Below are positions 40,207-64,000 of a stretch of DNA of 64,000 bases, piece after piece. The position numbers and the translations under genes were made by a program. Below the pieces are notes generated by a model. That model saw only the letters and a program-made list of their open reading frames with translations, did not search any database and had not been told where the DNA came from. This DNA is from a virus. The stretch is from IMG/VR virus record IMGVR_UViG_3300047471_000616, positions 32,021-96,020 of that record, one strand, 5' to 3'. Numbering within the stretch: the stretch's first letter is position 1; each line of letters opens with the position of its first letter.

Positions 40207-41316
40207 CTAGTTTAGGTCATGCAAGATCTGCTGGGCACGGTGCTTCCACAAGTGCTTATCAGCAATGATCTTGCGGCTTTCGGTTATGGCCTTGTTGCGG
40301 GCTGCATCGTCCTGCAGCCAGTACTTGGCCCGTTCTACGAAGTTGTCAGGTGTGTATTCGCCAAAGTGCACATCAGGTTCGAAGCTGGTGGTGAGCCTGC
40401 CCGCTGCCTGCGGGGCAGCACAAGAATGTGCCATGACGAAGCCACCAACTGCCATTGCTTCCAGTACCCGGCTATGCAAACCAAACCCATTCCAATTATT
40501 GTGCAGGTTGATTTTTGAATTGCGGTAAACTTGGTACAGTATCCTCTCATCCTTGATCGGCGCATAGGTGCAATTGCCAAACTGGTAGTATTTCTTCCAA
40601 TTAACACCATAAAATCCACACTTTGGTGACGCCAGGTAAGCCAATTGCGCCAATCGCAACCGATCAATATAACGTGGAAACTCAATAGCCATCCAGTTAC
40701 AAGACTTCCTCAACGTCTCATGTTCACTTTCACTGATCTTTTCGGTTGAGATTATCTTATCAACAAATTTCTGCAGATGTTCAGCCATCAGGAAGGCGTT
40801 GGAGCTACCGGTCAGAGGCCGGTACAGAAGTTCAGCCTCCTTGAAGCAGCGCCTTTCCAGCGGGTGCATATCCATCTTGCTGAAAGGCAACGTAATGTAC
40901 CCACAAATGGAAAAATCAAGTTCCCAAGAACCGTTTGCCTCATTCAGCAGTTCAGGACCAACCCCAGTCAACAGTGAGCCACGAAAATTAGGCCCTGCAT
41001 TGTTCATGCCGATCCAGGTTTCGCTGCCCAAGGTGTAGATTATGTCATTGCCCCTGGATTGCCCGGCGTAGTCCGGTGCTTCTAAAGGGCGGTAGTCCTG
41101 AACCCAGGCAATGTAAACACAATGGAAAGGCAATGCTTCTGGCCGTGGCCGGTTGACCCCCAGGACTATGTCGTAGCAACCAGCATCCCTAATGTTGTAG
41201 CTGTCAGTTGGCATGAGAACGTAAGAATGCCCGGCAGCTTCCAGGGCGCGGCCCAGTTCATGGGCTATCCTGAAGTCAAACGCCCTCTCGTATTCAGGAA
41301 TGAACAGAAATTTCAT
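40207..41316 (-). CDS. GT-B glycosyltransferase (CgeB/Glyco_trans_1_2-like)
   Basis: YRNSKINLH, SRVLEAMAVGGF, FEPD.H, KHLWKHRAQQIL. Confidence 0.8.
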   Translation of the reverse strand: MKFLFIPEYERAFDFRIAHELGRALEAAGHSYVLMPTDSYNIRDAGCYDIVLGVNRPRPEALPFHCVYIAWVQDYRPLEAPDYAGQSRGNDIIYTLGSETWIGMNNAGPNFRGSLLTGVGPELLNEANGSWELDFSICGYITLPFSKMDMHPLERRCFKEAELLYRPLTGSSNAFLMAEHLQKFVDKIISTEKISESEHETLRKSCNWMAIEFPRYIDRLRLAQLAYLASPKCGFYGVNWKKYYQFGNCTYAPIKDERILYQVYRNSKINLHNNWNGFGLHSRVLEAMAVGGFVMAHSCAAPQAAGRLTTSFEPDVHFGEYTPDNFVERAKYWLQDDAARNKAITESRKIIADKHLWKHRAQQILHDLN

Positions 41317-42055
41317 TGGTACCAGGATGCGCTAACCAGGGCATGATCAACGGCTGACGGCCCTTCCTGTACAACTCCAGCTTCTCACCCTTTTGCAGAT
41401 AGGGGTTTTCATTCATCAACCGCACTCGTATTTCAAGCCTATCCCCTTGTAAAACTAGGGGGAAGTTTAGACTGTCGTGAAACATGAAGTGTTGCGAATC
41501 CGGGGCTGGCCTGGTGCATTCAAAGGCGAACTGAGTTGCCAGGTGATTGGGTGCCCACTTGAAGCCGTGGGACTCAAGTTGTGCCCGGTACATGCGGCAG
41601 ATCAGGTGGTCCTCTTCCTTCAGGAAGAGCGGGAAGGTACCCCTGCGCTTTTCCAGGAACTGCATCAGCCGGGTTGAGCGTAGCCCACAGCCGTTGCCCA
41701 CGTTCCAGTTGTCTTCATACCACCATGGGGCACCAACGTAGTCATACTTCAGGAATTCATTGGTCCAGCACAGCGTGTTGATGATCCACGAATCCCATTG
41801 AATGAAGATGGCAAAATCAGTGGTCAGGTACTTTGGCACCCGGTACCAGAAAAACTTGTTGTAGTCTTCGTGCTCCAGCCACGGAGCAACTTCTACCCAC
41901 CGTGCCCCGCCTACCTTCAGATCAGTGTCTGAGAAAATGATGACGTCGCCAAACTCAATGCCACGAAGTGAGTCCTCAACGGCGAGCTTGGCTAGTTCTG
42001 GGCATGTAGTATCCATCATTACTAAAGAAACGCTAGGCAACTCAAGCTTTTTCAT
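41294..42055 (-). CDS. DUF5672-like protein (putative GT-A-fold glycosyltransferase)
   Basis: IQWDSWIIN...W..EFL.YDYVGAPW, VGNG.GLRS, EDHLIC, FAFE. Confidence 0.72.
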   Translation of the reverse strand: MKKLELPSVSLVMMDTTCPELAKLAVEDSLRGIEFGDVIIFSDTDLKVGGARWVEVAPWLEHEDYNKFFWYRVPKYLTTDFAIFIQWDSWIINTLCWTNEFLKYDYVGAPWWYEDNWNVGNGCGLRSTRLMQFLEKRRGTFPLFLKEEDHLICRMYRAQLESHGFKWAPNHLATQFAFECTRPAPDSQHFMFHDSLNFPLVLQGDRLEIRVRLMNENPYLQKGEKLELYRKGRQPLIMPWLAHPGTNEISVHS

Positions 42056-43455
42056 GCTGCTTTCTGCTGCTTCCACGACCTGGCAAGAAGCTGCATCTCC
42101 CTGGCCACACGCTCCATAACTTCGTCCCAGTCACCCATTTGCTTCTGGCCGAAGATGCGCATGGTTGGGTACCAGGCCGTGTCTTCACGATTGTCCAGCC
42201 AACGCCAACAATTGTCAAACCGGCTGAGCATCCACACCGGTTTGCCAAGTGCCCCAGCAAGGTGCGCGACTGACGTGTCCACGGTGATCACAAGATCCAG
42301 GTTTTCAATCATCGCAGCAGTATCAAAGAAGTCATAGAAGTCGGCCGTGAAGTCGCCAATGGCCATGTTCTTTGGGGGCTTTCGGCACTGTGGGCCAGGA
42401 AGCCCCATTTGTAGTGAGATCCAGGCAAGGTCCGGCACTGCATCAGCTACGGGGGCAAATGAATTAAGGGTCAGTGACCGCCTGCGGTCAATAGAACTGG
42501 CCAACGGGTTGTTGTCCCTATTCATGCCTGCCCAGCAGATACCCACCAGCATGCCAGGCGGCATGGCTTTGAGTTGTTCCCGGAAAATACCAACGCGGTG
42601 CTTGTCCGCGTAGACGTAGGGGCACTTCGCCGGAATTTCATCGTAAACAGACCACAAGATACGTGGCAGGGACATGAGTGGGGCAACGGCAACAATACCA
42701 TCAGGCAGCATCTCACCAAAGGAAACTACACGATCCACCCCCTCCAAAGTTTCAGCAAGACGCAACACCGGGTGACGTACTTCCAGGAAGAGTTTGCCGT
42801 GCCAAATTTCCCTGACTATGGTGACGTAGCGCATGAACTGCAGGATATCTCCCATACCCTGCTCGCCGTAAAGCAATAAAATATCATCCTTGGATTTAGT
42901 ATCCTCGCCCTGCCATTCAGGGTAGGGCAGGTTGCGCGCCGGGGATTGAGAACTTTTCCAGCGCCATTCGTACTCTTTCCAGCCCTCTTCAAACCGGCCC
43001 AGTTGCAACAAGCAGAAGCTATAACCCAGGTGGCCGTCAACGTAGTCTGGCCCTACTTCGGTGGCCGTTTTGTATTCTTTGAGTGATTCCTCAATCTTGC
43101 CCAGCCGCCTGTAGCAAGCACCCCGGTTACTGAATATTTCCGGTATTCTTCCGCCCTTGAGCATGGCCGTGGATAGATCTTCCAGCGCCCGCTCAAACAT
43201 GTCCAGGTCCATGTAGGCGGCAGCCCGATTGTTGTAGAACTCAAATGCTTCGGGGTCTACGGCAATAGCCCGGTCATAATTGACAATGGCGTCGAACGGC
43301 TGGCCAAGTTGACCGATCATGGAAGCCCGGTTGTTCCAGGCCGGGGTAAAATCGGGCTTCACCAGCAGAATCTTGTTCAGGTACTCAATCGCCGTAAACA
43401 GATCACCTTTGGCCTGGAACCGTAGGGACTCAACGAACATATCTTGCCACAGCAT
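42052..43455 (-). CDS. TPR repeats + GT9-like glycosyltransferase
   Basis: Five to six TPRs, EGW.EYEWRW, EQGMGDILQF.RY, DTAA.IENLDLVITVDTSVAHLAGALGKPVW. Confidence 0.88.
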   Translation of the reverse strand: MLWQDMFVESLRFQAKGDLFTAIEYLNKILLVKPDFTPAWNNRASMIGQLGQPFDAIVNYDRAIAVDPEAFEFYNNRAAAYMDLDMFERALEDLSTAMLKGGRIPEIFSNRGACYRRLGKIEESLKEYKTATEVGPDYVDGHLGYSFCLLQLGRFEEGWKEYEWRWKSSQSPARNLPYPEWQGEDTKSKDDILLLYGEQGMGDILQFMRYVTIVREIWHGKLFLEVRHPVLRLAETLEGVDRVVSFGEMLPDGIVAVAPLMSLPRILWSVYDEIPAKCPYVYADKHRVGIFREQLKAMPPGMLVGICWAGMNRDNNPLASSIDRRRSLTLNSFAPVADAVPDLAWISLQMGLPGPQCRKPPKNMAIGDFTADFYDFFDTAAMIENLDLVITVDTSVAHLAGALGKPVWMLSRFDNCWRWLDNREDTAWYPTMRIFGQKQMGDWDEVMERVAREMQLLARSWKQQKAA

Positions 43456-43585
43456 TACAGGCTCCCTCTGTTGGTGGCCACACTTTGTCGCTAGCATAAG
43501 TAAAAGCTAGAGCCAGGACTGCGGCTATGAATAGAGCCGCAGCAGGTTCCAGGATCAGTCTTTTCAGGGTTTTAACTCTGGTCAT
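43430..43585 (-). CDS. small membrane protein
   Basis: One TM helix; ATGA coupling. Confidence 0.5.
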   Translation of the reverse strand: MTRVKTLKRLILEPAAALFIAAVLALAFTYASDKVWPPTEGACNAVARYVR

Positions 43586-43809
43586 CGCAGCGAGTGCATA
43601 CTCATGCCGCCGATTGAACCGCCCGCCAGAATGGTCAGGATGGCGATGACGACGAGGATAAGCACAACCAGCCATATGGCCTGCACGACACGTTCGGGAA
43701 TGGCTATCCCAAGAATTTGCTGAACGACGTAGAGAACAAACCAGATGATGGCGCACAAGACCACGAGGCCAAGCAGCATCCACAGCAGGCTTATTGCCAT
43801 TGCTATCAT
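43582..43809 (-). CDS. small two-TM membrane protein
   Basis: SD AAGGAGG; two hydrophobic helices joined by IP.RV. Confidence 0.7.
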   Translation of the reverse strand: MIAMAISLLWMLLGLVVLCAIIWFVLYVVQQILGIAIPERVVQAIWLVVLILVVIAILTILAGGSIGGMSMHSLR

Positions 43810-43827
43810 AGCGTTTCCTCCTTGGGG

Positions 43828-43856
43828 AAAAAGCCCCCAGCCATTGGCGGCTGGGG
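43828..43856 (-). terminator. intrinsic terminator after head genes
   Basis: CCCCAGCC-GCCAAT-GGCTGGGG followed by GCTTTTT on the - strand. Confidence 0.75.
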
Positions 43857-43870
43857 TAGGTTGGGAGAAG

Positions 43871-44449
43871 TTACCCAGAAGAACCAACTACCGGGTAGTT
43901 GAGTACAGCGGTATTTGGCCCGGCTGTCGAGCCGGTTGCCTGACTGACCACGATGCCCAGAAGGCTGTACGTGGTGCCAGAACCACCACCGGTCGAGCTG
44001 ACACGCCCGCCAATCGTGGCGGACGAGAACAGCTGCGCTTCCTTGGTGGTGGAAGCAGCGCAGTTCAGCCCAGGAGCGTTACCAGCACGCTGGACCCAGA
44101 AGAAGCTGCCCGTTTGCGTGCCCGAAGGCGCACCGACGAACATCGTCCCCAAACTGCCACCGACCACACCAAGCAGCTGCCCGGTGGGGGCGGTGCCGAC
44201 GGTAGCGCCACCAATGAGTGCTACCGACCAGGAACCTGGCACGTCAGAGATGATGACTACGCTGCCAAGACCAATGGTGATGCTGGCAGTGCAGTACACC
44301 CAATCGGAACCATCAGTCCCAAAGCACCTGGTCCCTTTACCAAACGGTGGTGCCGGGTATTCAGGGAAGCTTTTCGTGTCGAGATAGAAGACGTTGTTTA
44401 TGTCAACACCTTCCATGTTGAGAGTAGAATAGATTGCAGCAGCGGCCAT
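43871..44449 (-). CDS. capsid decoration/cement-like protein
   Basis: GT...GTDG..WVY, FFWVQ..G; downstream of the MCP; SD AAGGAGG. Confidence 0.65.
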   Translation of the reverse strand: MAAAAIYSTLNMEGVDINNVFYLDTKSFPEYPAPPFGKGTRCFGTDGSDWVYCTASITIGLGSVVIISDVPGSWSVALIGGATVGTAPTGQLLGVVGGSLGTMFVGAPSGTQTGSFFWVQRAGNAPGLNCAASTTKEAQLFSSATIGGRVSSTGGGSGTTYSLLGIVVSQATGSTAGPNTAVLNYPVVGSSG

Positions 44450-44464
44450 GATAGGCCTCCTTAC

Positions 44465-44555
44465 TTAGGGGTTGAAGCTTTTACGCTAACGGGGAAGATT
44501 GGTTTCTTCACCCCTAACATGCTTATGGTGCAGGGGAATTGGTTTCCCCCTGCAC
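44465..44555 (-). promoter_or_regulatory. tandem hairpins with ACCAA loops and an alternative pairing next to the RBS
   Basis: GTGCAGGGGGAA-ACCAA-TTCCCCTGCAC and GGGGTGAAGA-AACCAA-TCTTCCCC; TTAGGGGTGAAG is also complementary to CTTCAACCCCTAA. Confidence 0.55.
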
Positions 44556-44562
44556 TTGAGCA

Positions 44563-44964
44563 TTACGCGAGCAGGCCGCACCACAGGGTAGTGGTAGGGC
44601 CGGTCCAGATGATTGCAGTCTTCAGTGTCGTGATTGAGAACGGGTTGGCACCCGCATACGCCGCGCCACCGATGTTGATAGTGACACCGGCAGGCGCATA
44701 GACAGTAAGTACCGGACCCGTGGCATTGTGGATGATGAAATCGTCCACAAGACCTGGCGGGTTGGCACTTGATGGCGAAGGCAGGATGTAAGCGCCGGTT
44801 CCTGAAGTTGCGGCAACAAAGCCCTGTTGGCCATAGACTTGCGCAGCAGTTGCAGGGCTATTCCCGGTTGGGACGAGAGTGACAGGCCCAACTCCAGCTT
44901 CGGCCAATTGCGCGGCCAGTCTTGGGGGCACCCCAAGACCCATGAGATCTACAGCAGTTGTCAT
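44563..44964 (-). CDS. putative minor head protein
   Basis: DLMGLG.P, ATAAQ, LP, IHN....L.VY; follows the MCP. Confidence 0.65.
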   Translation of the reverse strand: MTTAVDLMGLGVPPRLAAQLAEAGVGPVTLVPTGNSPATAAQVYGQQGFVAATSGTGAYILPSPSSANPPGLVDDFIIHNATGPVLTVYAPAGVTINIGGAAYAGANPFSITTLKTAIIWTGPTTTLWCGLLA

Positions 44965-44981
44965 GACTGTTCTCCTTCTGG

Positions 44982-46013
44982 TTATGCGACCAGCACGCCC
45001 TGAAGGAAAGCGTTGCTCAGCGTCATGTTGCCCGCCCAGCCAATCAGCCGGATCATGGCATCCTGGTTGACCGAGAAACGATCCGGGTCAAGCGGTACCA
45101 TGTTCCTGCGTGAGTGGGGCCGCCAGTGAAGGTACTTCGTGTTGAGGAAGTACATTGTCGTGGACGGCGCACCACCAACCGCAGAGCTAGACGAGCTAAC
45201 CTGCGGCGGCAGCGGGTCGGAGCTGAAGCCCTGGAAGCCACCATCCAGCACAACGTCGCTGTTCAGGTATTTCAGCGAGTTGAAGCCGTACTCGGCCATA
45301 TCCGGCGCGGCGTTCTCAGTTTGCACGCGCTGGATGGCCTGCAGTGACTGCAGGTAGTAACGATAGGTGACGTTGTCGGCGATGATCAGGTCCGGGTAAT
45401 CACGCCCGCGAACCAGCAGCGTCCACAACGAGTCCATCTGGCTGAGGATGGTAGCGGCAGTAAGCGTCGTGCTGCCGTTGGTGACAGCCGACCATGCCTG
45501 GTTCTGCCAGAAGGTCCACTGCGAACGGTCAATGCCGCCCACCGTACCGGTTGTCGGCGAAGAAGCCACCAGAAGCTGGAGGCCGCCCACCGAGTTGCTC
45601 ACCGTGCCGTCACCGTAGATACCCTGGCTGAGGCCGTTCATGAACGTATCTTCGGCGTTCATAATGCGGGACTCGAGCAGGTCGATGATGGCTTCCTCGC
45701 CGGAGTTTTGCAGTTCCTCCAACCCGCTGATGCTGACCGCAACTGCGGCCTGGCGGATCGGGTATTCAGCCGCCGTGAACACCTGCGACGGGGCAATATT
45801 CAGGGTTTGATAGCCCGAATACCACTGGAACGTCTGGTTGTCGGCGTAGTTGAGCTCTTGCACGATAGTACGGCCACCTGAGAAGGTTTTCAGGTTACCG
45901 CGCCGCGTAAGCCGCAGAAGTGCGGCGTTGTTGCGGCTCATGTTGTCGGCAAGTTCGCCAGTACGATTACGAAGCGTCGTAGTGACAACTTCCGACAGGT
46001 TCGGGAAAGCCAT
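44982..46013 (-). CDS. major capsid protein
   Basis: TTTLRNR...LADN...NNA.L, SGG..I..EL.Y, YSGY..L, SISGLEE..NSG, YFLNT.Y, NQDA; highly biased codons. Confidence 0.92.
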   Translation of the reverse strand: MAFPNLSEVVTTTLRNRTGELADNMSRNNAALLRLTRRGNLKTFSGGRTIVQELNYADNQTFQWYSGYQTLNIAPSQVFTAAEYPIRQAAVAVSISGLEELQNSGEEAIIDLLESRIMNAEDTFMNGLSQGIYGDGTVSNSVGGLQLLVASSPTTGTVGGIDRSQWTFWQNQAWSAVTNGSTTLTAATILSQMDSLWTLLVRGRDYPDLIIADNVTYRYYLQSLQAIQRVQTENAAPDMAEYGFNSLKYLNSDVVLDGGFQGFSSDPLPPQVSSSSSAVGGAPSTTMYFLNTKYLHWRPHSRRNMVPLDPDRFSVNQDAMIRLIGWAGNMTLSNAFLQGVLVA

Positions 46014-53380: not shown

Positions 53381-53664
53381 TACAGTTTCTTACCTGTTTT
53401 CGGCACGCCCACCTTGTGCGCATGGGGTACGCCAGACAGCCTGAGTGCCCCCTCTATCTGATGGGCTTTGTGACCGAAGCCATGAGCCTTGGGGTGTGGC
53501 TGCCTTAGAACCGGCCCCAGGGCGTGAGTACGGCCTGGGTGCAGGGGCACCGAAGTAGGCTTGAACACGCCAGGGGTCTGTACCTTACCCACGGGGTTTT
53601 CCCCGGCCACTTTCTTGGCCGGGACTGCAGGCTCAGAAGCGTAAAACGGCTTCTTACTTGCCAC
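53380..53664 (-). CDS. small basic His-rich protein
   Basis: Likely GTG start 53664 overlapping the upstream stop; C-terminal motif shared with 53654..54478. Confidence 0.6.
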   Translation of the reverse strand: MASKKPFYASEPAVPAKKVAGENPVGKVQTPGVFKPTSVPLHPGRTHALGPVLRQPHPKAHGFGHKAHQIEGALRLSGVPHAHKVGVPKTGKKL

Positions 53665-54478
53665 GATGGCCCACCCGGTGGGCACCTGAATGGCCAGACA
53701 TGCGCAGGACACCTTTACGCTGACCACCTGCATGTCCGTAGCCATGTGCCATGTTTGCAGCCGGTGGTCGGAAGCTGTGGGCTACCCCACCAAAATTCTG
53801 TCCTACGTGGTGTTCGGCAATGTCGGTGCGGCCAGCACCCAGGCTCTTGCCCTGAGGCTGGCTGTGGTTCCCAGGAGCTGGCCCCTTTTCCTGCAGTTCG
53901 CTGCCGCCCCGGTCAGCCGGGCCGTTATTCGCAACTTCGCCATGGTGCTTGCCCATACCTGAGCCTCCTTTTCCATGATGTTCAGTCAGTTCTGCGTCGT
54001 AGCTTTGGTTTGGCCTGTGGCCAGTAAATGTAGGAGCGTTGCCAATGGATTTGCCACGCGGCTGCTTGGCATGCGCCCCGGCGTTGTACTCACCATACGG
54101 CGGCTTCCCTTCACGCTTGAAGCCAGGGTTCCCTGGGAAGTGGCCGCTGCGGTCATAGCTGCCACCACCGCCATGTTTCACCGAATCCTCCTTCTTCAGG
54201 AATTTGGTATTTCTGGACTCAGTGCTTGCTCCGCCAAGAGCTGCCTTACCCATGGCATTGTCACGCTTTGCCCTGGACGCACCATATTTCTTGCCTTTGT
54301 CGGCGGCATGAAACTCTTTGGCCACCTTCTTAGGGATACCGGCTGCTTCACCAGTTGGTTGCCAGCCATGAGCAATGGCAGACATAGTCTTGGCTTGCTT
54401 GACACTGTGTGACGGCATTTTCGCTCTCCTGTTTCTGAGCGTGGTCGTGGCTAGTTCAGTCAGTCCGGGGCTGGGCAT
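53654..54478 (-). CDS. Gly/His/Lys-rich protein with MCP-like leader; second start at 54418
   Basis: MPSHSVKQAKTM.A.AH...GIP..VAKEF..ADK motif seen in phage pre-terminase proteins; SD AGGAGA before 54418. Confidence 0.7.
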   Translation of the reverse strand: MPSPGLTELATTTLRNRRAKMPSHSVKQAKTMSAIAHGWQPTGEAAGIPKKVAKEFHAADKGKKYGASRAKRDNAMGKAALGGASTESRNTKFLKKEDSVKHGGGGSYDRSGHFPGNPGFKREGKPPYGEYNAGAHAKQPRGKSIGNAPTFTGHRPNQSYDAELTEHHGKGGSGMGKHHGEVANNGPADRGGSELQEKGPAPGNHSQPQGKSLGAGRTDIAEHHVGQNFGGVAHSFRPPAANMAHGYGHAGGQRKGVLRMSGHSGAHRVGHRGK

Positions 54479-54480
54479 GA

Positions 54481-54606
54481 CTAGGAATTCTTCAATTGGC
54501 CCAGCGTAACGAAGAAGGGCAGGTTGTGCGGCTGTTCAGTGCCGCCGCCAGGTGGAGTGACACCGCCAGGATGGAAAAGCGTGCCCACCATGAGAAGTAT
54601 CGTCAT
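54481..54606 (-). CDS. 41-aa peptide
   Basis: ATGA overlap with the GT41 stop; MTILLMVGTLFHPGG...LPFFVTLGQLKNS. Confidence 0.5.
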   Translation of the reverse strand: MTILLMVGTLFHPGGVTPPGGGTEQPHNLPFFVTLGQLKNS

Positions 54607-56327
54607 TGATTTGCTACCTTCAGTTCGTCTTGTTTCGTTTCGTGGCCGCAGTAGCGCCACCACATGGATCTGTAAGCATCTTCAACTTCCCCAACATAAT
54701 CACCGCACAGCGGGGATTTAAGGAACTGATCGCGCAATTCACTGCGGGCCTTGCTCAGTTCTGTACGTTCGGCTGCCAATTTGACCGCCTTGTTCACGTA
54801 ATCGTCTATTGACTTGGCAACCCAATTATCCCGTCCCATGATGTGCAGTGCCGTGGCAGTGGTCCTGCCACCTACCTGGCCATTGTAAAGGGTGATCACC
54901 GGGACACCCATGTAGAGGATTTCCAGGGCGGTGACACCGCCAGTATGCGGGAAGGTATCAAGCACCAGGTCGACGTTCTGGTAGATCAGAAACTGCTCGG
55001 GGTGAGAGCAATCCTGCATGAACAGGATGCGCTTAGGGTCAACATCGTGCATTACTTCGCGGATGCGCTTGATAGCGTAAGGCCGACGCATCCCCAGATC
55101 TTTGACTATCAACCGGCTGTTTGGCGTGCGCAGGAGTATCTTGTGCCACGCTTCTAGCGACTGTGGGCTGTATTTCTCAAACCGGCCAAAGACCCCAAAG
55201 GTGAAAATGCCATCCCGGCCTACTGGCGGGTGGCTGGCGCTGGGCTGATTGTAGTTCGGCGGTTCGTAGGCCACCACACAGGAAATATCCCATATTTTCT
55301 CAGCGAAGAACTTGCGCTCTTCTTCAGGAATTGAATAGGGATCAGCAAAGAAGTAATCAATCTCAGGGCAGCCGCTGCCATGAGCAAAGCCCCAAGCATG
55401 GATCTGAACCGGTGCCGGTTTACGGGTGAAAAGTGGCAGACGATTGCCCCCAGTATGACCAGATAAATCAACCAGAATATCAATGCCGTCAGCCCTGATC
55501 ATGGCCTCAGCTTCTTCATCATTCTTAGCTGAAATATCACGCCAGTTGGTCTTTTCCATAAACCGCTTGGTCTGAGAATCATCAGTACTTGCTGGCATCG
55601 TCATGTAGCAGTAAGGATCATAAGCATTGCGCTCATGGTACAGGATCACCTTGCCAAAGATGAAGGCTGCCGAATGCATCTTGAAGTCACCGCCGACGTA
55701 GCCTATGCGCAGCTTGCGGTCCGGTACGCGGTCATTGGCGTGCGGTTTCTTCTCACCTTTATAGGCAAACCGCTCATACCACACCTGCCGCGCCTTGTAG
55801 TTTTCTTCCGGCGTGGTATTCTTCAGCGTGCGGACAAAAACGCTGTTGAATCCCACCATTTCCCTTGTTGAATAAGGTGGCTCGAACGGCTTGGCTATGG
55901 CCGCCTCATAAGCCTCACAAGCCTCTGCTGCCTTCGCGCAGGCAGTAAGGATCATGCCCTTGGCGCAAAATGCATCGGCACTCTCAACAAGATTGATGGA
56001 CCGGTTGATGGCTTTCAGCGCCTCGTCAGGCCGTTCTACCTCAAGCAAGGCCAATGAATAATTGTACCAAGTTGTTGAATTCTTATCGTCGAACAGTAGC
56101 GACCGCTCAAGCCGCTGAATGGCCGCCAGAAACTGACCTTGCTGCGCCGCCATGACCCCGTGGTTGGCAGTAATCGGCCCATTGTTTGGGTCGATACGCA
56201 AGCCTTTGAAGTAGGCTTGTTCGGCCTCAGCAAAGCGGCCTGCTACATGATGCTGCAGGCCAATATCTAGCCACTCCTCAGCCATTGAGGAGCCAATACG
56301 CGGAAGCAAGTGGAACGGCTGTGGCAT
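54603..56327 (-). CDS. TPR + GT41 (OGT/SPINDLY-family) protein glycosyltransferase
   Basis: N-terminal TPRs; LRIGYV.GDF..HS, DGIDILVDLSGHT..NRL, KPAPVQ, DLVLDTFP..G..T..E.L.MGVPVITL. Confidence 0.92.
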   Translation of the reverse strand: MPQPFHLLPRIGSSMAEEWLDIGLQHHVAGRFAEAEQAYFKGLRIDPNNGPITANHGVMAAQQGQFLAAIQRLERSLLFDDKNSTTWYNYSLALLEVERPDEALKAINRSINLVESADAFCAKGMILTACAKAAEACEAYEAAIAKPFEPPYSTREMVGFNSVFVRTLKNTTPEENYKARQVWYERFAYKGEKKPHANDRVPDRKLRIGYVGGDFKMHSAAFIFGKVILYHERNAYDPYCYMTMPASTDDSQTKRFMEKTNWRDISAKNDEEAEAMIRADGIDILVDLSGHTGGNRLPLFTRKPAPVQIHAWGFAHGSGCPEIDYFFADPYSIPEEERKFFAEKIWDISCVVAYEPPNYNQPSASHPPVGRDGIFTFGVFGRFEKYSPQSLEAWHKILLRTPNSRLIVKDLGMRRPYAIKRIREVMHDVDPKRILFMQDCSHPEQFLIYQNVDLVLDTFPHTGGVTALEILYMGVPVITLYNGQVGGRTTATALHIMGRDNWVAKSIDDYVNKAVKLAAERTELSKARSELRDQFLKSPLCGDYVGEVEDAYRSMWWRYCGHETKQDELKVANQ

Positions 56328-56335: not shown

Positions 56336-57196
56336 TCACTGAGCTGGTATTATCAGTTTTAGATTGCCAGTTGTTTTTAGCGGGATACTGAGCGTTTGTG
56401 CGGCGAAGGACATAGTTGCACTTGCACCTGTAGGGCCAAATGCCAAGTAGGTATTCAACCGAGTGTAGAAGCTAGTGATTTGGCCAGTCGTAAGCGAGGC
56501 CCCCATGCTGGCTACAGAAATAGTATTCGGAGTGCCAAATGCTTGGGTATTGGATAGGACGGTAAAATTTCCAGAAGGAACTGCGGCAGAGGTTCCGTTA
56601 GGATTAGAAAACAAAGAGCCGCTCTGATACAGTGCAGACGCAGCCGCCCCCGTTCTATTTGCTACCCAATGCCCTATTCTCGTACCCGGTACACCTTGAC
56701 CACCCGACTCAGGGCTGTCATTGATGCGGCAATAAGCATTCCCGTCGCCAAAAAACGTCATGAACAGATTGCTGTCACTTCCAGTCTTCGACCCGATACA
56801 ACATCCACCGTTTACTGTTGCAAGATTTGTCATCATCCAGACAGAGTAATGTGCATCGTTTTGCGTATATAGACTGCTGCCGGAACCAGAATAGCCGGTG
56901 TCAATGTAAGGACCTGTACCAACACTATCCAGTCCCGCATAGCCTGTGTCGACCGTAAATGATGGACTACCCGATACAGTCGTTTGCGCTGTCGCCAGAG
57001 TGTCGCCGACAAGATCAGTCAGGGCGCTTTGCGTGTTCTCGGCGGCAAAAAGCCATAGCCGTTCGAGTTTAGCCCAGACCCCATCTGCCTTCAGGCCAAC
57101 GATCAGGTTGTCGACCAGCGTCTGACGGCCAGCGCTGACGGTGCCGCCGTTGGCAATAACCGCATTCACCCAAGCAGTAGTCGCTGGATCGGGCAT
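56336..57196 (-). CDS. putative virion structural protein (beta-sandwich-like)
   Basis: W..AV...GGTVS......D.L...LK.DG.W.KL; YIDTG; G..LT...I..FY; Ser/Thr/Gly-rich. Confidence 0.6.
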   Translation of the reverse strand: MPDPATTAWVNAVIANGGTVSAGRQTLVDNLIVGLKADGVWAKLERLWLFAAENTQSALTDLVGDTLATAQTTVSGSPSFTVDTGYAGLDSVGTGPYIDTGYSGSGSSLYTQNDAHYSVWMMTNLATVNGGCCIGSKTGSDSNLFMTFFGDGNAYCRINDSPESGGQGVPGTRIGHWVANRTGAAASALYQSGSLFSNPNGTSAAVPSGNFTVLSNTQAFGTPNTISVASMGASLTTGQITSFYTRLNTYLAFGPTGASATMSFAAQTLSIPLKTTGNLKLIIPAQ

Positions 57197-58696
57197 CTAG
57201 CCTATCCGCCAGTTAGTGCCGTCGCACCACACTGGCACTGTGCTACCAGCACCACCAGTTCCGGCAACAATTGCTCCAATGTTGGTATTGTTCGTTACTG
57301 CAACCGTGCTATCGGTCACAAACATCCTAACGCCCTTGAAGCAGGAAGCGGGCGTCGGCAAGGCCGCGACAGTGTACGCCTGCGACGTGTTTATAATGTC
57401 GTACCCCAACAGCGTGCCAATGAACCCAGTCAGCAGGGCTGTCGCATTCGACATGAAGTTGTTTCGCACAGTCAAATACGAATTGCCGTCGCTGCGGAAC
57501 ACGCCGTCAACGGATACCCCCGGCCCATCCAGGAGCGTAGCCCCTGCACCGATGCTGTTGAGAAACAGCGGGTAGGCAGTAATGCTCGCGCCAAGAGCAC
57601 CCGCCGCCGTTCTGCTCAGCGTATAGGTGCCAGTCCCCCCGCTGCTTCCTGTCAACTGAACAACTACCGTTGCCCCCGGTGCCGTGCCGCCGCCCGATGG
57701 AAACGCAGTATTATCGTAAATGACCATTCCATTCCTGAGAGCCCCAGACCCAACGGCAGAAACCGTCAATGTAGTTCCAGAAATGGTCGCGGTGCCCGTA
57801 AACTTGGACGCAGCCTGGCCGCAGTTGATGGCATAAACCGAGCCATTGTTCTTGATGAACTGAAAACTTTCCGTTCTGGAACCCTGAATTATCATTGTGC
57901 TGCCAGAGACAACATCAACATCGCAATCATTACCATCGAACGCGGTATTGATGACGACCGGCGCGGTGGCGTTGTTGTTGGTCTTGATCCCTACGGCACA
58001 TGAGCCAATCGCGCCGCCGATCACCCGCATATTCAGTGAATTAGCCCCGGAGACAAACAGGCCGTATTGCTCATGCGGCCCCATGTTGCAATTCAAATAG
58101 GTGTTTTCCGAATTTGCGGCGCTAGCGGTCGACCCGTGTACCACCCCGTTGCTGGTGGTGCTGGTAGAGCAATTGACGATCAGATTGCTATGGGCGCTGG
58201 AGCCGCCATTGACGCCATCGGGGCCAAACCACAGGCAAGCCGTGTAGTGGTTGGTCGGGTCGGTCTTCCCCTCAAAGCTGATCCCGGAAATCTCACAGAA
58301 ATTGCAACCGTCGAGCCACAGAGCAGCTATGATGTTATCCGCAGTCGGTGGCGTGGTAATCTGGCCCTGGTAGTTTATGACCGACGAAAATTGCCCGTCG
58401 CCAAATATCCTGCCGCCCCACACCGCCGTCACCCGCAGTGACGAGTTGATCAGGTACGTCCCATGCGGGAAATAGACTGGGGTATTATTAGGGCCGCCAC
58501 CGTTGCCGTGAGGAGAGGCATTGGTGCCGAATGCAGCATCGAATGCCGCTTGAATCGCAGCGGCATCGTCCGCCACTCCGTTGCCGACAGCACCGTAGTC
58601 CTTGACGTTGATGACTTGTGCGGCGCGGTCGCCAAGGCTACGCGAAGTGGTCGAGCCGGTCGATTTATACAATGCCGTGGCAATATTTACGGTCAT
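57197..58696 (-). CDS. tailspike/depolymerase with pectate-lyase-like beta-helix
   Basis: INVKDYGAVGNGVADD.AAIQAA, YFPHGTY; C-terminal PVWCDGTNWRIG. Confidence 0.85.
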   Translation of the reverse strand: MTVNIATALYKSTGSTTSRSLGDRAAQVINVKDYGAVGNGVADDAAAIQAAFDAAFGTNASPHGNGGGPNNTPVYFPHGTYLINSSLRVTAVWGGRIFGDGQFSSVINYQGQITTPPTADNIIAALWLDGCNFCEISGISFEGKTDPTNHYTACLWFGPDGVNGGSSAHSNLIVNCSTSTTSNGVVHGSTASAANSENTYLNCNMGPHEQYGLFVSGANSLNMRVIGGAIGSCAVGIKTNNNATAPVVINTAFDGNDCDVDVVSGSTMIIQGSRTESFQFIKNNGSVYAINCGQAASKFTGTATISGTTLTVSAVGSGALRNGMVIYDNTAFPSGGGTAPGATVVVQLTGSSGGTGTYTLSRTAAGALGASITAYPLFLNSIGAGATLLDGPGVSVDGVFRSDGNSYLTVRNNFMSNATALLTGFIGTLLGYDIINTSQAYTVAALPTPASCFKGVRMFVTDSTVAVTNNTNIGAIVAGTGGAGSTVPVWCDGTNWRIG

Positions 58697-58991: not shown

Positions 58992-59000
58992 CGCCAGCCC

Positions 59001-59255
59001 CTACGGTGCGAACATCATGAACGGCAGTATGATAGGCTGCAACGCACCTGGGAAAAGAAACTGAGTAACTGTAGTTTTACCGCTACCGTGCTGTGAAAAT
59101 GCAGGGAAGGAATTGGTATAGCGCACCGTCGGTGTTGCACCTGTTCGCGGTTGTGGGGCACCAGGGTACCGGTAGTTCTGCACCGCAGTCTGGCCGCTGC
59201 CATGCTGCGGTAACGGCCCGCCGGGGAAGGCATTGGTGTAAGATAGCTGGGTCAT
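59001..59255 (-). CDS. 84-aa protein with internal duplication
   Basis: YTN[AS]FP...QHGSG[QK]T.V...[YF]PGA.QP occurs twice. Confidence 0.7.
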   Translation of the reverse strand: MTQLSYTNAFPGGPLPQHGSGQTAVQNYRYPGAPQPRTGATPTVRYTNSFPAFSQHGSGKTTVTQFLFPGALQPIILPFMMFAP

Positions 59256-60574
59256 TTCAACCTGTAATCTTCTGTGGATTGAGCAACGTATGGATCACTG
59301 GCCAAAACGGTGTCATTTGGCCCGGCACTGAGGTTGAGGTAGTTTGTCGTGTTGTTATAGAAGACATTCCAGTCAATATATTTCCTCAACCTTTCATTGG
59401 TTGTTGCCGTGCCAGTTTGCAGCTCTACCCCGTAGGTTGACGCTGTAGTATGATTGCTGATAATGTTATTGGCTACGACGAGGCCAGAACCCCCACCAGT
59501 CTCGTCAACAATGGCACTCCCGCCATTGCCATCAAAAATATTGTTGACAACAGAGACAAACCCAGTAAGGACATCAAGGCCCCGTTTCCCATTTTTGGCA
59601 ATAATGTTGTCGTGAATTTCATAATCGCCAGACGCAGCATTAACTATTACGGCAGAGCTGACGCAATCGTGAATGTTACACCACTGAACTGCCCCTGGCC
59701 CTGAACCTATGTAGACAACAGAATTTGCAACATTAGGTGTCCCTGCAGCTGATGAAAAAAACTCACAGCCAAGACATTGAACTGCACCATCACCGTTAAA
59801 ATAGATATCATCTCCAAGTTGGTCTATTACACATCCAATATAAACATTCGGGGCGGCATTTATGGTGTTCTGAAACATAACCTGACCAGCAGTCAAGGTA
59901 CCAGACACAACCCAAATACCCCGAAACTGTATACTGGCCATGGCCTTCATGAAGGCTGAAGTATTAATCTGAACAGTTGGCATACCACCAGTCGTATCTG
60001 GCGGGGCCTTGTATCCAGGCGTGGCCGGGTCATTGAGGAAATAGATGAAACCGTTAGTACTAAGGTTCCCGTTCACAATGCTGTTGCTTGAGGCTGCTGT
60101 GTAATCGTAGACATAAGACGCTGGATTTGGCACGGCCGTCCCAAGTATGTAAATTATGTTCCCAGGTACCAATGCAGCTGCCGTAGTCGTAGCGTTGGTC
60201 CAAAAATCACGCCAGGCACCACCCATCGCACCAGTCATTGCTGCACCTGCACCCGTGGTACAGGTACGGTCCAACGTCCAGGTGCTGGCAGCGGCGGCAG
60301 TGATGAAATACCATCCGGTGATAAAGTTCGTGCCGCCGGTAATGTTCACAACATTGGCAATATCAGCAGAGCTGCCGGTGACCCCCACCAAGGTGATGAT
60401 ATTGGTTATTCCTGCCGTCGTAGCGCGGACGGTAGTGCCATTGAAGGTGACAAATGCAGCATCCTGCTGTGAACGATCAGTCCCCGGCGTAGACAGACCA
60501 GCATCGTAGCCGCCACCATTGGTGTTGCTGCCGCCAGGACGGACGCGCCAAATAGCGGTTGGTTGGATAGTCAT
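59252..60574 (-). CDS. right-handed beta-helix (tailspike-like) protein
   Basis: N-terminal W.VR..GS..NGGG; Asn ladders NNIFDGN, NNIISN, DWNVFYNN; DP.......DYRL. Confidence 0.75.
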   Translation of the reverse strand: MTIQPTAIWRVRPGGSNTNGGGYDAGLSTPGTDRSQQDAAFVTFNGTTVRATTAGITNIITLVGVTGSSADIANVVNITGGTNFITGWYFITAAAASTWTLDRTCTTGAGAAMTGAMGGAWRDFWTNATTTAAALVPGNIIYILGTAVPNPASYVYDYTAASSNSIVNGNLSTNGFIYFLNDPATPGYKAPPDTTGGMPTVQINTSAFMKAMASIQFRGIWVVSGTLTAGQVMFQNTINAAPNVYIGCVIDQLGDDIYFNGDGAVQCLGCEFFSSAAGTPNVANSVVYIGSGPGAVQWCNIHDCVSSAVIVNAASGDYEIHDNIIAKNGKRGLDVLTGFVSVVNNIFDGNGGSAIVDETGGGSGLVVANNIISNHTTASTYGVELQTGTATTNERLRKYIDWNVFYNNTTNYLNLSAGPNDTVLASDPYVAQSTEDYRLK

Positions 60575-60583
60575 TAAATCAAC

Positions 60584-60661
60584 TCAGAGCATGTTATTGG
60601 GGCCAGTGGCCAAGACAACTAGCTGCTTGAGTTGGGCTGGGGTTGCCCCGGCAACGCTCAT
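60584..60661 (-). CDS. 25-aa micro-ORF
   Basis: SD AAGGAGA then ATG; MSVAGATPAQLKQLVVLATGPNNML*. Confidence 0.45.
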   Translation of the reverse strand: MSVAGATPAQLKQLVVLATGPNNML

Positions 60662-60673
60662 TGTGTGTTCTCC

Positions 60674-63600
60674 TTACGGGAAGAGATAGCCAACAATGGA
60701 AGCTGCGTTAAGGATAGACTTGGTAGTGGCACTGACCCCAAAGGCAATGGTTATGCCAGCAGCAATATCCTGAGCCAGGCCAATGATACCGCCAGAAACG
60801 ACGGCAGCATTGACGTTGATGAAAGCGTTGGCTGCAATCGGGGCCGCAGCCACGTTCGTTGGCTGAGCCGTAGAAACAAGCACGGCTATGGTATTGAACG
60901 TGGCCACTGCCGACGTACCGACAACAGCCTGAACAGAGTTGATGCGAAGAGTTTTACCCGCTGGGATGACCCAGGCAGTTGTCGCTGCCGCTGCCTGTGT
61001 TACGCCAGTATAGACCGTGAACAGAAGGGTTGTCAGTGCCGCAGGCGGGATAGTTGTCGTGACAACTATCACCACTTGAGTTCTGGCTACATCAAAGACA
61101 CTTATGTCTCCGGTACCGACCATCACCACCAAGCCTGTGGCATTGACGGAAGGCACCCCGGTCGTCATCACCACACTGCTGATAGCAACAGTTACTGTCT
61201 GTGTGGGTGCAAGCCAAACTAACTGTCCGGTAACAGCAGCCTGAGTAGTTGTCAGCACTATGCCAGAAGCACTGATGGTGCCACTGACCAGTACCGATCC
61301 TGAGATGCCAACCGAACCTGAGACACCCACCGATCCAGTGTTAGTTACCGTTACCGTACCGGTTATGGTCGTAGTGACTGTGGCGGTAACAGTGGCCGTC
61401 AGACTGATGGTTTGAGTTGGGGCCAGCCAGACTACTGCACCTGTCACAGCGGCCTGGGTAGTCGTGGCAACAGCGGTAGAAGCAGCAAGTGCTACAGAAA
61501 GCGTCTGAGTTGGAGCCAGCCAAACGATCTGGCCAGTAACTGCGGCTTGGGTAGTTGTGTTTACTACCCCAGACATAGTGATGGTGCCGCTGACTACTGC
61601 AGAAACTGATGCACCTTGCTGGATGGTTACGGAAACACCGCTACTGACGGTGACTGTACCACTGATAGCAGCAGATACTGTCTGCGTAGGTGCCAGCCAA
61701 ACCAGTTGTCCGGTTACCGCTGCCTGGGTGGTAGTATTTCCTATTCCTGATACAGATATTGTACCAGACACTACAGCAGAAACAGAAGCACCCTGCTGAA
61801 TAGTGACTGAAACACCACTACTGACAGTGACCGTACCACTGACAACTGCAGATACGGAAGCACCCTGCTGGATAGTGACGCTTACACCGCTAGATACTGT
61901 AACCGTACCACTGACAGCAGCAGTAATCGTCTGTGTCGGTGCCAGCCAAACTAGCTGTCCAGTAGCTGCTACCTGGGTGGTAGTATTTCCTATTCCTGAT
62001 ACAGATATTGTACCAGATACTACTGCAGATACTGAAGCTCCCTGCTGAATAGTAACTGAAACGCCACTGCTGACGGTAACGGTCCCGCTGACAACTGCAG
62101 AAACTGAGGCTCCCTGTTGAATTGTTACGCTGACACCACTGCTGACAGTAACGGTCCCGCTGATAGCTGCAGATACAGTTTGTGTTGGCGCAAACCAGAC
62201 TACCGCGCCTGTGACAGCAGCCTGAGTAGTCGTAGCTACTGCGGTAGTACCAATGTTGACTGACAGTGTCTGCGTAGGTGCCAGCCAGACTACCGCACCA
62301 GTAACCGCAGCCTGAGTTGTCGTCGCTACTGCTGTAGAAGCACCTATTGCTACAGTTAGAGTTTGAGTGGGGGCCAGCCAGACAAGGACGCCAGTGGCGT
62401 TCGCTTGAGTAGTGGTCATCACCGGTCCAGACAGGGAAACTGTACCGGTGCCTACTGTGACGGTCCCACTGACAACCGCAGAAACAGATGCACCCTGTTG
62501 AATAGTGACCGAGACGCCACTGCTAACAGTGACTGTCCCAGACACAACCGCAGAAACCGAAGCTCCTTGTTGAATTGTTACCGAAACACCGCTGCTGACG
62601 GTAACCGTACCGCTCACTGCAGCCGAAATAGTTTGCGTCGGGGCCAGCCAAACCAGCTGTCCAGTTACTGCAGCCTGAGTAGTGGTGTTTACTATCCCAG
62701 ATGCAGTTATGGTCCCAGATACTACAGCAGAAACTGAGGCCCCTTGTTGAATGGTTACAGAAACACCAGAACTGACGGTTACAGTACCAGACACTACAGC
62801 AGAGACAGAAGCACCCTGCTGGATGGTAACTGATACACCAGAACTGACGGTAACTGTTCCGCTAATAGCTGCAGATACTGTCTGTGTCGGTGCAAACCAG
62901 ACTACTGCACCAGTAACCGCAGCCTGAGTAGTTGTAGCTACTGCTGTAGAAGCACCAACCGCAACATTGAGGGTTTGTGTGGGGGCAAGCCAAACTAGAA
63001 TACCAGTGGCATTGACCTGTGTTGTGGTCATCACTGGGCCAGACAGAGATACCGTACCGGTACCTACCGTAACTGTCCCGGAAACTACAGCAGAAACAGA
63101 AGCTCCCTGTTGGATGGTGACTGAAACACCAGAACTGACGGTAACTGTCCCACTGACAACCGCAGAAACAGATGCGCCCTGTTGGATAGTGACTGAAACA
63201 CCACTACTGACGGTAACCGTACCACTGATAGCAGCAGATACTGTCTGCGTAGGAGCCAGCCAAACCAGCTGTCCAGTTCCAGCTGTCTGAGTGGTGGTAT
63301 TTACTATCCCAGATGCAGTTACAGTACCAGAAACTACAGCAGAAACAGAAGCACCCTGCTGGATGGTAACCGAAACACCAGAACTGACGGTAACGGTTCC
63401 ACTGACAGCTGCCGTCAGGGTCTGTGTTGGTGCCAGCCAAACTAGTGCACCAGTCGCAGCAGCCTGAGTGGTTGTGGCTACTGCCGTAGTAGAGGCCGCA
63501 CCACTGACAGAAACAGTACCTGAGATTACAATTGTGTTAGAAACACTGACGGTACCACTGATAGCAGCAGATACTGTCTGCGTAGGAGCCAGCCAGACTA

Positions 63601-64000
63601 CAGCACCAGTGACTGCTGCTTGCGTCGTAGTAGCAAGAGCTGTCGTAGCGAAACTGGCACCACTGATCGAGACTGTGCCACTGACAGCAGCAGAAATCGT
63701 CTGCGTTGGACCCAGCCAAACTACCGCACCGGTAACCGCAGCCTGGGTAGTCGTAGCTACAGCAGTGGTGGCGAAACTGGCACCACTGATTGAGACTGTA
63801 CCACTAACAGCCGCACTAATTGTCTGCGTGGGTGCGATCCAGACTACCGCACCTGTAACAGCAGCCTGAGTGGTCGTGGCAACTGCTGTAGAAGCCCCAA
63901 TCACCACAGACAGTGTCTGGGTTGGAGCCAGCCAAACTACTGCACCGGTAACTGCCGCCTGGGTAGTCGTAGCTACTGCTGTAGTTGCGAAACTGGCTGT
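60674..64000 (-). CDS. giant Thr/Ser/Val/Ala repeat protein (5' end outside window), putative fibre
   Basis: Frame is open to base 64000 (1109 codons in window); two interleaved repeat modules; non-repetitive C-terminal domain of about 145 aa. Confidence 0.85.
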   Translation of the reverse strand, partial: TASFATTAVATTTQAAVTGAVVWLAPTQTLSVVIGASTAVATTTQAAVTGAVVWIAPTQTISAAVSGTVSISGASFATTAVATTTQAAVTGAVVWLGPTQTISAAVSGTVSISGASFATTALATTTQAAVTGAVVWLAPTQTVSAAISGTVSVSNTIVISGTVSVSGAASTTAVATTTQAAATGALVWLAPTQTLTAAVSGTVTVSSGVSVTIQQGASVSAVVSGTVTASGIVNTTTQTAGTGQLVWLAPTQTVSAAISGTVTVSSGVSVTIQQGASVSAVVSGTVTVSSGVSVTIQQGASVSAVVSGTVTVGTGTVSLSGPVMTTTQVNATGILVWLAPTQTLNVAVGASTAVATTTQAAVTGAVVWFAPTQTVSAAISGTVTVSSGVSVTIQQGASVSAVVSGTVTVSSGVSVTIQQGASVSAVVSGTITASGIVNTTTQAAVTGQLVWLAPTQTISAAVSGTVTVSSGVSVTIQQGASVSAVVSGTVTVSSGVSVTIQQGASVSAVVSGTVTVGTGTVSLSGPVMTTTQANATGVLVWLAPTQTLTVAIGASTAVATTTQAAVTGAVVWLAPTQTLSVNIGTTAVATTTQAAVTGAVVWFAPTQTVSAAISGTVTVSSGVSVTIQQGASVSAVVSGTVTVSSGVSVTIQQGASVSAVVSGTISVSGIGNTTTQVAATGQLVWLAPTQTITAAVSGTVTVSSGVSVTIQQGASVSAVVSGTVTVSSGVSVTIQQGASVSAVVSGTISVSGIGNTTTQAAVTGQLVWLAPTQTVSAAISGTVTVSSGVSVTIQQGASVSAVVSGTITMSGVVNTTTQAAVTGQIVWLAPTQTLSVALAASTAVATTTQAAVTGAVVWLAPTQTISLTATVTATVTTTITGTVTVTNTGSVGVSGSVGISGSVLVSGTISASGIVLTTTQAAVTGQLVWLAPTQTVTVAISSVVMTTGVPSVNATGLVVMVGTGDISVFDVARTQVVIVVTTTIPPAALTTLLFTVYTGVTQAAAATTAWVIPAGKTLRINSVQAVVGTSAVATFNTIAVLVSTAQPTNVAAAPIAANAFINVNAAVVSGGIIGLAQDIAAGITIAFGVSATTKSILNAASIVGYLFP

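Follow-up and report, generated by a model that had tools for sequence, protein, structure and literature searches.

The window analysed here is a 64,000-nucleotide (nt) stretch, bases 32021–96020 of the 96,020-bp IMG/VR virus record IMGVR_UViG_3300047471_000616, which derives from an uncultured phage; a 127-bp direct terminal repeat at the record ends indicates that the genome is complete. The right half of the window is occupied, on the minus strand, by a single long late operon in the order fibre/spike genes, a glycosyltransferase family 41 (GT41) gene with tetratricopeptide repeats (TPRs), small proteins, TerL, portal, a scaffold-like protein, an Mx8-type major capsid protein, three small proteins, a trio of known or putative glycosyltransferase genes and tail genes. 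An initial sequence-only reading of this DNA had described the structural-gene setting correctly, and the four enzyme genes it singled out (GT41 and the trio) all lie on the minus strand of the late structural operon, tightly spaced or overlapping (−68, −25, −23 and +11 nt around the trio; +8 and +124 nt around GT41). The subjects of this analysis are GT41, the giant repeat fibre encoded upstream of it, and the TPR–GT9 enzyme of the trio, each considered as part of a possible system for protein glycosylation.

The GT41 gene (54603–56327, minus strand) encodes a 574-residue TPR–GT41 protein glycosyltransferase of the SPINDLY/OGT type, without the intervening domain. Its score against PF13844 (Glyco_transf_41) is 146.9 bits over a cut-off of 25, and the best solved relative is SPINDLY (7y4i, E 2.5e-68), residues 397–849 of which align with query residues 117–564 and span both catalytic lobes; these two matches bear out the family label given earlier. 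Thermobaculum OGT (TtOGT, 5djs) also aligns (E 6.5e-64), and matches to TPR_1, TPR_2 and related models cover residues 16–115 (N-terminal TPRs, ~3–4 repeats). H218 of the D-F-x-x-H motif and K385 are invariant in 24 homologues, and K385 (FEK) aligns with the Lys of the SPINDLY ‘LAK’, the position of K842 in human OGT. The active site is predicted to be intact. Like SPINDLY (7y4i, 8dtf) and OGT (3pe3, 5djs, 2jlb), the phage enzyme joins N-terminal TPRs to a GT-B catalytic domain of two lobes, retains the catalytic Lys and the DF..H His, and would act in the cytoplasm, presumably on Ser/Thr of extended peptides. It differs in being phage-encoded, in having only ~3–4 TPRs, in its genetic linkage with a sugar pathway and a single giant candidate acceptor that are both dedicated to it, and in a donor that is probably neither UDP-GlcNAc nor GDP-fucose. 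To our knowledge, every characterised GT41 enzyme (OGT, SPINDLY and N-glycosyltransferases (NGTs) of the HMW1C type) glycosylates proteins. Relatives of the phage enzyme form at least 28 protein clusters at 60–99% identity, many of them on contigs of 56–96 kb, with many more at 40–52%. A tblastn search of 50,697 deposited phage records with GT41 gave no homologue, megablast of the region against deposited phage records gave no match, and in genome contigs a GT41 profile search reached no relative above 30% identity, apart from one short fragment at 39%, and no prophage copy.

The candidate acceptor is a giant repeat protein whose C-terminal 1,108 residues are encoded at 60674–64000 (minus strand) and whose open reading frame (ORF), once the contig ends are joined over the 127-bp terminal repeat, continues to genome position 1921 and specifies 1,706 residues. 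The Thr/Ser-rich protein of more than 1,100 residues reported at first is thus real and longer than the window shows. Thr and Val each make up 20% of it, Ala 14%, Ser 13% and Gly 10%; it has only 11 charged residues, no Cys and almost no proline. The motif TGxxVWLAPTQT recurs 26 times in its T/V/S/A/G modules, which lack the Gly-X-Y periodicity of a collagen stalk. The last ~138 residues (60677–61090, minus strand) are predicted to form a TNF/C1q-like jelly-roll knob (AlphaFold predicted local distance difference test (pLDDT) score >90). Structure searches match the knob to C1q heads, 4-1BBL (6bwv, Z 11.9), the tail complex of cyanophage A4 (9k09, Z 10.6), the F-BclA tip (9h38, Z 10.0), the short tail fibre of cyanophage A-1(L) (8ke9, Z 9.8), BclA (1wck, Z 9.0) and PRD1 P5 (Z 8.6), the phage entries being distal domains of fibres; the alignments span ~120–136 residues, with Z 9.0–11.9 for the C1q/TNF-like heads. 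Matches of the knob in the viral structure library BFVD are to phage and giant-virus proteins that are collagen-like or contain a C1q domain, and its homologues amount to 108 cluster representatives among 1.84 billion proteins. The model points to a stalk-plus-knob fibre, presumably trimeric, rather than a classical Pro-rich mucin; the description of the protein as mucin-like is not supported, in view of its near lack of proline, conserved Trp motif and TNF-like knob. The Bacillus BclA/F-BclA exosporium and Ena tip fibrils (1wck, 9h38) offer a close likeness, sharing a long repetitive Thr-rich stalk with a C-terminal TNF/C1q-like trimeric knob (Z 9–10), and collagen-like fibrils of giant viruses likewise carry C1q-type heads on a repetitive stalk. 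Thr residues of the BclA stalk are heavily O-glycosylated. The phage stalk differs in being non-collagen, with TGxxVWLAPTQT as its repeat unit, and the enzyme family is also different.

Directly upstream of the fibre gene, on the same strand after a gap of 53 nt and outside the window, lies a sugar cluster of about six to seven genes (genome 1975–9307). Starting from the fibre side, these encode an acetolactate-synthase-like thiamine diphosphate (ThDP) enzyme with three TPP_enzyme domains (genome 1975–3696); a radical S-adenosylmethionine (radical-SAM)/SPASM enzyme matching Pfam Radical_SAM and SPASM (genome 3693–4850); a second Glyco_trans_1_2 enzyme (genome 5040–6185), paralogous to that of the trio at 34% identity over the full length (E 1e-74); a sugar O-methyltransferase above the cut-off of TIGR04371 (genome 6197–7366); a SIS/GmhA-like isomerase (genome 7359–7961, 100 bits); and a fusion of cytidylyltransferase-like and PfkB kinase domains that is HldE-like, with both HldE domains in reversed order (genome 7946–9307, 127 bits). 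The absence of sugar-synthesis genes noted at the outset therefore holds for the window and fails for the genome, and the idea that donors must come from the host does not stand, because the phage carries this cluster immediately upstream of its fibre gene.

A profile search of IMG/VR with GT41 yielded 18 loci, the distant ones being those in which GT41 is 40–46% identical; L002 denotes the present genome. Of the testable loci, 11 of the 12 distant ones and both close ones have a TSVAG-rich, nearly uncharged ORF of 365–1,855 residues no more than 10 kb upstream of GT41; none lies downstream of GT41 in the loci examined. Seven loci have the fibre ORF ending 10–30 nt before GT41, and the exception, L016, has it 22 kb away on the same record, adjoining the nucleotidyltransferase and radical-SAM genes. 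A lack of correlation between GT41 and the repeat protein had been named as a finding that would speak against the glycosylation idea; we observe a repeat-fibre homologue in every other GT41-bearing viral record where one could be searched for (13 of 13). The fibres still match one another with low-complexity filtering on, through the motif TGxxVW[LIV]APTQT and the C-terminal knob, and are therefore homologous, not mere compositional look-alikes. Approached from the other side, a DNA pattern for the fibre motif picked out 22 stretches, and GT41 was present in all seven informative contigs with at least two motif copies (three more were too short). The radical-SAM/SPASM enzyme (52–61% identity, better conserved than GT41) and the nucleotidyltransferase accompany GT41 in 10 of 10 records where they were sought.

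The ThDP enzyme is present in split form in the three distant loci scanned for it, where E1_dh-like and Transket_pyr-like small ORFs stand in for the single enzyme (L008:13383–14458, L009:11704–12802 and L019:8781–10015 (+)); the ThDP step is thus kept in distant cassettes by non-orthologous enzymes. Another distant cassette, L014, has two TPR–GT41 genes, 2942–4777 (+) and 9989–11776 (+), flanking the fibre and sugar genes.

The phages that share these genes otherwise have little in common. Among five other cassette-bearing records, three of them 96–100% complete, none has a homologue of the capsid protein found here, and TerL is absent from three and only 27–30% identical in the other two. 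The sugar genes, GT41 and the knob-tipped repeat fibre behave, from their distribution, as a mobile cassette moving as a unit between unrelated phages, and this joint movement is the strongest evidence available that the parts work together. The TPR–GT9 gene is likewise found in none of these five records, which places the trio outside the GT41 cassette.

Within the trio, the first gene (42052–43497, minus strand) encodes the 481-residue TPR–GT9 enzyme, with TPRs at residues ~17–181 and a GT9-fold catalytic domain at residues 196–477 (AlphaFold pLDDT 94). Its match to PF01075 is marginal (22.6 against 22 bits) and covers residues 393–421 only, and TIGR02193 scores 23 bits against a cut-off of 185. 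Structural comparison of the modelled residues 196–477 nevertheless upholds the original GT9 label: the closest entries are 3tov (Z 18.6, 258 residues aligned, root mean square deviation 2.9), WaaF (1psw, Z 17.6), WaaC (2h1f, Z 16.7) and TibC (4rap, Z 15.5), and at the level of the model a GT9-type GT-B fold is confirmed. Residues invariant in 46 homologues include E212, Q213, G214, G216, D217, D407, T408 and H412, of which G216/D217 and D407/T408/H412 are putative counterparts of the N-terminal G-D and C-terminal D-T-x-x-x-H nucleotide-sugar motifs of WaaC. The 50,697 deposited phage genomes gave one distant match to TPR–GT9, in an uncultured phage.

Heptose is the usual GT9 donor, and TibC and Aah illustrate that the GT9 fold can heptosylate Ser in repetitive β-rich proteins. 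With the heptosyltransferases WaaC/WaaF, which act on lipopolysaccharide (LPS), and TibC/Aah, which act on autotransporters, the phage enzyme shares the GT9 fold (Z 15.5–18.6), and the GmhA-like and HldE-like genes of the phage could supply nucleoside diphosphate (NDP)-heptose, a circumstantial link. It differs from all four in its TPR fusion, and its Pfam score barely clears the cut-off; TibC ranks below the LPS enzymes in structural similarity, and the NCBIfam matches of TPR–GT9 include no autotransporter heptosyltransferase family.

The second gene of the trio (41294–42076, minus strand) encodes a 260-residue DUF5672 protein (PF18922, E 2e-11). The domain label given to it at first is correct, whereas its description as glycosyltransferase-like found no confirmation: no relative in the PDB was detected with the single sequence or with a 30-homologue profile, an Atlas search returned DUF5672 clusters only, and the one paper found to name the domain deals with another subject. 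A class-I O-methyltransferase domain (PF13578) is joined to DUF5672 in some homologues, and several apparently share ~90 kb contigs with TPR–GT9 homologues (contigs of 95021, 90363 and 88692 bp occur in both match lists). The third gene (40207–41316, minus strand) encodes the CgeB-like glycosyltransferase, correctly recognised as such (PF13524 Glyco_trans_1_2, E 3.3e-17).

Upstream of TPR–GT9 lies the gene for p192 (43871–44449, minus strand), a 192-residue, T/S/G/A-rich, low-charge head-module protein that is also encoded directly upstream of the TPR–GT9 homologues in L023–L025 (L026 begins too near the TPR–GT9 gene to show p192). The nearest named Atlas cluster of p192 carries Phage_cement_2 on 22% of its members, which serves as a lead only; we regard p192 as a candidate cement/decoration protein and candidate TPR–GT9 acceptor. 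The order p192–TPR–GT9–p250–tail protein is kept in TPR–GT9 relatives at 38–40% identity, and L023–L026 are without DUF5672 and GT1_2. The records with TPR–GT9 only are at most 70% complete, too partial to judge an absence of GT41 or sugar genes. In the Bradyrhizobium relative (see below), no homologue of p133, p192 or the glycosyltransferases occurs in the 25-kb stretch around the capsid gene. TPR–GT9 is, on its domain make-up and gene order, probably a second, independent protein-directed enzyme that acts on a head or neck protein, and the case for it is weaker than that for GT41. A strong terminator-like hairpin (43835–43856, minus strand; 7 of the 9 stem base pairs are G-C and the tail is T-rich, a consensus match only) follows the capsid, p133 and p192 genes and precedes the trio, and would fit high expression of head proteins with lower read-through into the enzyme genes.

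Taken together, gene content and neighbourhood lead us to favour, by a modest measure, two separate protein-directed glycosylation modules in the late operon, one the mobile GT41/sugar/fibre cassette and the other built on TPR–GT9. The first would comprise a sugar pathway (isomerase, nucleotidyltransferase-kinase, O-methyltransferase, radical-SAM/SPASM enzyme, ThDP enzyme and GT1_2), the TPR–GT41 enzyme and the giant fibre. Late in infection, the isomerase, kinase and nucleotidyltransferase would make an NDP-heptose-like core, which the radical-SAM enzyme possibly oxidises and to which the ThDP enzyme possibly adds a two-carbon branch, much as YerE adds a two-carbon branch for yersiniose; the methyltransferase would then cap the sugar. 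In the cytoplasm, the TPR domain of GT41 would hold the unfolded or extended repeat stalk while the catalytic domain O-glycosylates many of its Thr/Ser residues with the phage-made sugar, and the GT1_2 enzymes may lengthen the glycan. The glycosylated trimer would assemble through its knob and be mounted on the virion as a fibre, together with the neighbouring spike proteins. In the second module TPR–GT9, accompanied here by DUF5672 and the trio's GT1_2 and encoded after the small cement-like head protein, would probably modify a head or neck protein, possibly with heptose. The most specific form of this scheme, in which the ~1500-residue stalk of a trimeric fibre is densely O-glycosylated by GT41 with a phage-made, heptose-derived, branched and methylated sugar while TPR–GT9 heptosylates a capsid cement protein, giving two independent coats, we put forward tentatively and think rather doubtful in all its details.

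FlmG of Caulobacter provides a precedent for TPR-mediated choice of acceptor: its TPR domain binds the protein acceptor of a soluble GT-B enzyme, and its C-terminal GT-B domain, coupled to a dedicated nonulosonic-sugar pathway in this alphaproteobacterium, sets donor specificity (PMC7591256). Both GT41 and TPR–GT9 share with FlmG the combination of a TPR acceptor-type domain and a GT-B domain, a likeness of architecture; whereas FlmG acts on flagellin, the phage enzymes would act on a fibre or head protein.

Several points weigh against the two-module reading. The case is made from gene content and neighbourhood: domain identities, folds, gene order and co-occurrence are observations, from which we infer acceptor, donor, linkage and virion location. 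The GmhA models score 96–100 bits against NCBIfam equivalog cut-offs of 209–276, and HldE scores 127 against 521, with the domain order reversed. No GmhB phosphatase or HldD epimerase occurs in the cluster or in 62 further ORFs (among the top 25 of 26 matched families), although host enzymes could substitute, and some cassettes retain the nucleotidyltransferase alone of these sugar genes. It is common for SPASM radical-SAM enzymes to serve in peptide maturation, and the one encoded here may therefore have the fibre as its substrate instead of a sugar. AlphaFold gives the repeats pLDDT <50 and no confident fold, with which a β-solenoid and a disordered, mucin-like chain are both compatible, and the placement of the fibre on the virion is suggested by gene position and knob fold only. 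Finally, the pairing of p192 with TPR–GT9 is confined to one phage lineage with conserved synteny and thus counts as weak evidence.

The sequence-only reading had proposed a single line of virion glycosylation, with GT41 as the primer on fibre or capsid residues, and with TPR–GT9, DUF5672 and the CgeB-like enzyme extending the glycan from host donors. The co-orientation of the four genes in one late operon speaks for it, as does the paralogue of the CgeB-like enzyme inside the sugar cluster, which is the sole link between the trio and sugar-cluster regions. Yet the five other cassette-bearing records manage without TPR–GT9, the relatives L023–L026 have TPR–GT9 without DUF5672 and GT1_2, an acceptor-type TPR domain of its own would be unusual for a chain extender, the position of TPR–GT9 is itself conserved, and the phage encodes its own sugar pathway. 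We consider the single line improbable and its division of labour between primer and extenders unsupported.

The target of some or even all of these enzymes, and of the trio in particular, could instead be host envelope glycans (LPS core, capsule or exopolysaccharide), for example as a superinfection block or in cell remodelling. The LPS heptosyltransferases WaaF and WaaC are indeed among the top-scoring GT9 structures, the distant cyanophage homologues of DUF5672 adjoin sugar-tailoring genes without structural context, and serotype-changing phage glycosyltransferases are a known class, according to a review cited in PMC12619734. Set against this, the genes lie inside a head–tail morphogenesis block and not in an early or moron region, the TPR fusion, like those of OGT and FlmG, suggests that the acceptor is a protein, and the scanned ORFs include no membrane-associated flippase or polymerase genes. 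We also know of no lipid or polysaccharide acceptor for GT41. An envelope target is, on this evidence, unlikely.

Retaining a protein target for GT41, one may suppose that it acts on other proteins (host regulators, flagellin or other virion proteins) and that its adjacency to the fibre merely reflects shared late expression. TPR–GT41 enzymes have broad substrate ranges in eukaryotes, and other late proteins here reach 17–23% S+T. The latter figure supports the earlier remark on several further Ser/Thr-rich structural proteins in a weak sense, as none has a poly-S/T tail. However, the pairing of GT41 with the fibre is maintained when the genes move between phages whose capsids and terminases are unrelated, the two are immediately adjacent in seven loci, and the fibre is the only GT41 neighbour kept in every record. 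Little probability attaches to this alternative.

The prospects are similarly poor for the proposal that the radical-SAM/SPASM enzyme is a maturase that tailors the repeat fibre directly, by cross-links or epimerisation, with glycosylation secondary or absent. Its gene is the best-conserved of the cassette (52–61% identity), its weak NCBIfam matches are mostly to peptide or cofactor maturases, and the fibre is a repetitive, motif-bearing peptide substrate. But it is always accompanied by the nucleotidyltransferase, and often by the kinase, isomerase and ThDP enzyme, company that is sensible only for small-molecule (sugar) chemistry, and a fibre devoid of Cys offers no residue for thioether links. 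Glycosylation of phage DNA against restriction, the classical role of phage glycosyltransferases, was rejected as exceedingly improbable, since the 62 other ORFs of the genome include no hydroxymethylase or other base-hypermodification enzyme, GT41 and TPR fusions are protein-directed, and the genes are late and structural rather than part of the replication arm.

Virus-encoded glycosylation of virions is itself a known kind of system, reportedly established for some mycobacteriophages by Freeman et al. in 2023. As summarised in PMC12619734, virion proteins of mycobacteriophages Che8, Corndog and Myrna are glycosylated by phage glycosyltransferases encoded in or near the structural genes, and the glycans sit on the C-terminal tails of capsid and tail-tube subunits. 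Two-module glycosylation as favoured above would resemble these systems in having its glycosyltransferase genes embedded in a structural block. It differs in that the candidate acceptor is a separate giant fibre, the cassette has its own sugar pathway and the host is presumably Gram-negative, not an actinobacterium; the capsid protein (18% S+T, with an ordinary C-terminus) lacks the Ser/Thr-rich tail of the mycobacteriophage type. According to the initial reading, the mycobacteriophage enzymes also belong to other GT families. Our literature search found phage virion glycosylation for mycobacteriophages only, and nothing on GT41 in phages or on the cassette. What would be new here is the family of the enzyme, together with a sugar pathway and a giant fibre that are both dedicated to it. 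Should the most specific form of the scheme hold, it would be the first case of a GT41 system in a bacterial virus and of a GT41 using such a donor. Confirmation of the cassette's role would show that phages of Gram-negative hosts repeatedly resort to sugar-coated fibres, which might serve in receptor binding, protease resistance or shielding; it would provide a compact, bacterial-type GT41 enzyme–substrate pair whose repeated acceptor motif is useful for working out GT41 substrate rules, and it would reveal a new nucleotide-sugar pathway with radical-SAM and ThDP tailoring.

The remaining genes define the phage and its probable host. The major capsid protein (44982–46013, minus strand; phrog_9953, E 1.9e-109) is of the Mx8 type, and its closest cultured counterpart is that of Bradyrhizobium phage ppBjS10J-1 (53% identity), followed by those of Myxococcus phages Mx9 and Mx8. 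The 62 ORFs scanned for families (genome 9311–67597) include PolA, RecA, DnaB, an N6/N4 DNA methylase, UDG and a GcrA homologue (PF07750, E 4.7e-25). GcrA is typical of Alphaproteobacteria and of phages infecting them, the DNA methylase being a further hallmark of such phages, and together with the Bradyrhizobium phage capsid it makes an alphaproteobacterial host plausible. Between the repeat fibre and GT41, all on the minus strand, lie genes for a 440-residue β-helix protein that is a fibre or spike (59252–60574; PF13229 Beta_helix, E 2.3e-6), homologues of which adjoin the fibre in L006 and L012; a 499-residue pectate-lyase-like tailspike (57197–58696; PF12708, E 1.1e-13, and PHROG tail fibre and tail spike families); and, directly upstream of GT41 with a gap of 8 nt, a 286-residue fibre-module protein (56336–57196) matching phrog_26223, phrog_18498 and phrog_17104, which have no assigned function.

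Two further observations concern the operon at large. A NusG-like protein (PF02357, E 1.6e-13) is encoded at genome 11741–12223 (minus strand), ~2.4 kb upstream of the sugar cluster and on the same strand as the ~60-kb late operon, and may be an RfaH/NusG-type antiterminator for this long transcription unit. Downstream of GT41, a 274-residue protein (53654–54478, minus strand) begins with a peptide (…LTELATTTLRNR…) that copies the N-terminus of the capsid protein encoded at 44982–46013 (minus strand; …LSEVVTTTLRNR…). This capsid-like leader is retained in the relatives L004 and L005, the remainder of the protein being basic and Gly/His-rich, and its occurrence in both proteins may mark a targeting or protease-processing leader.

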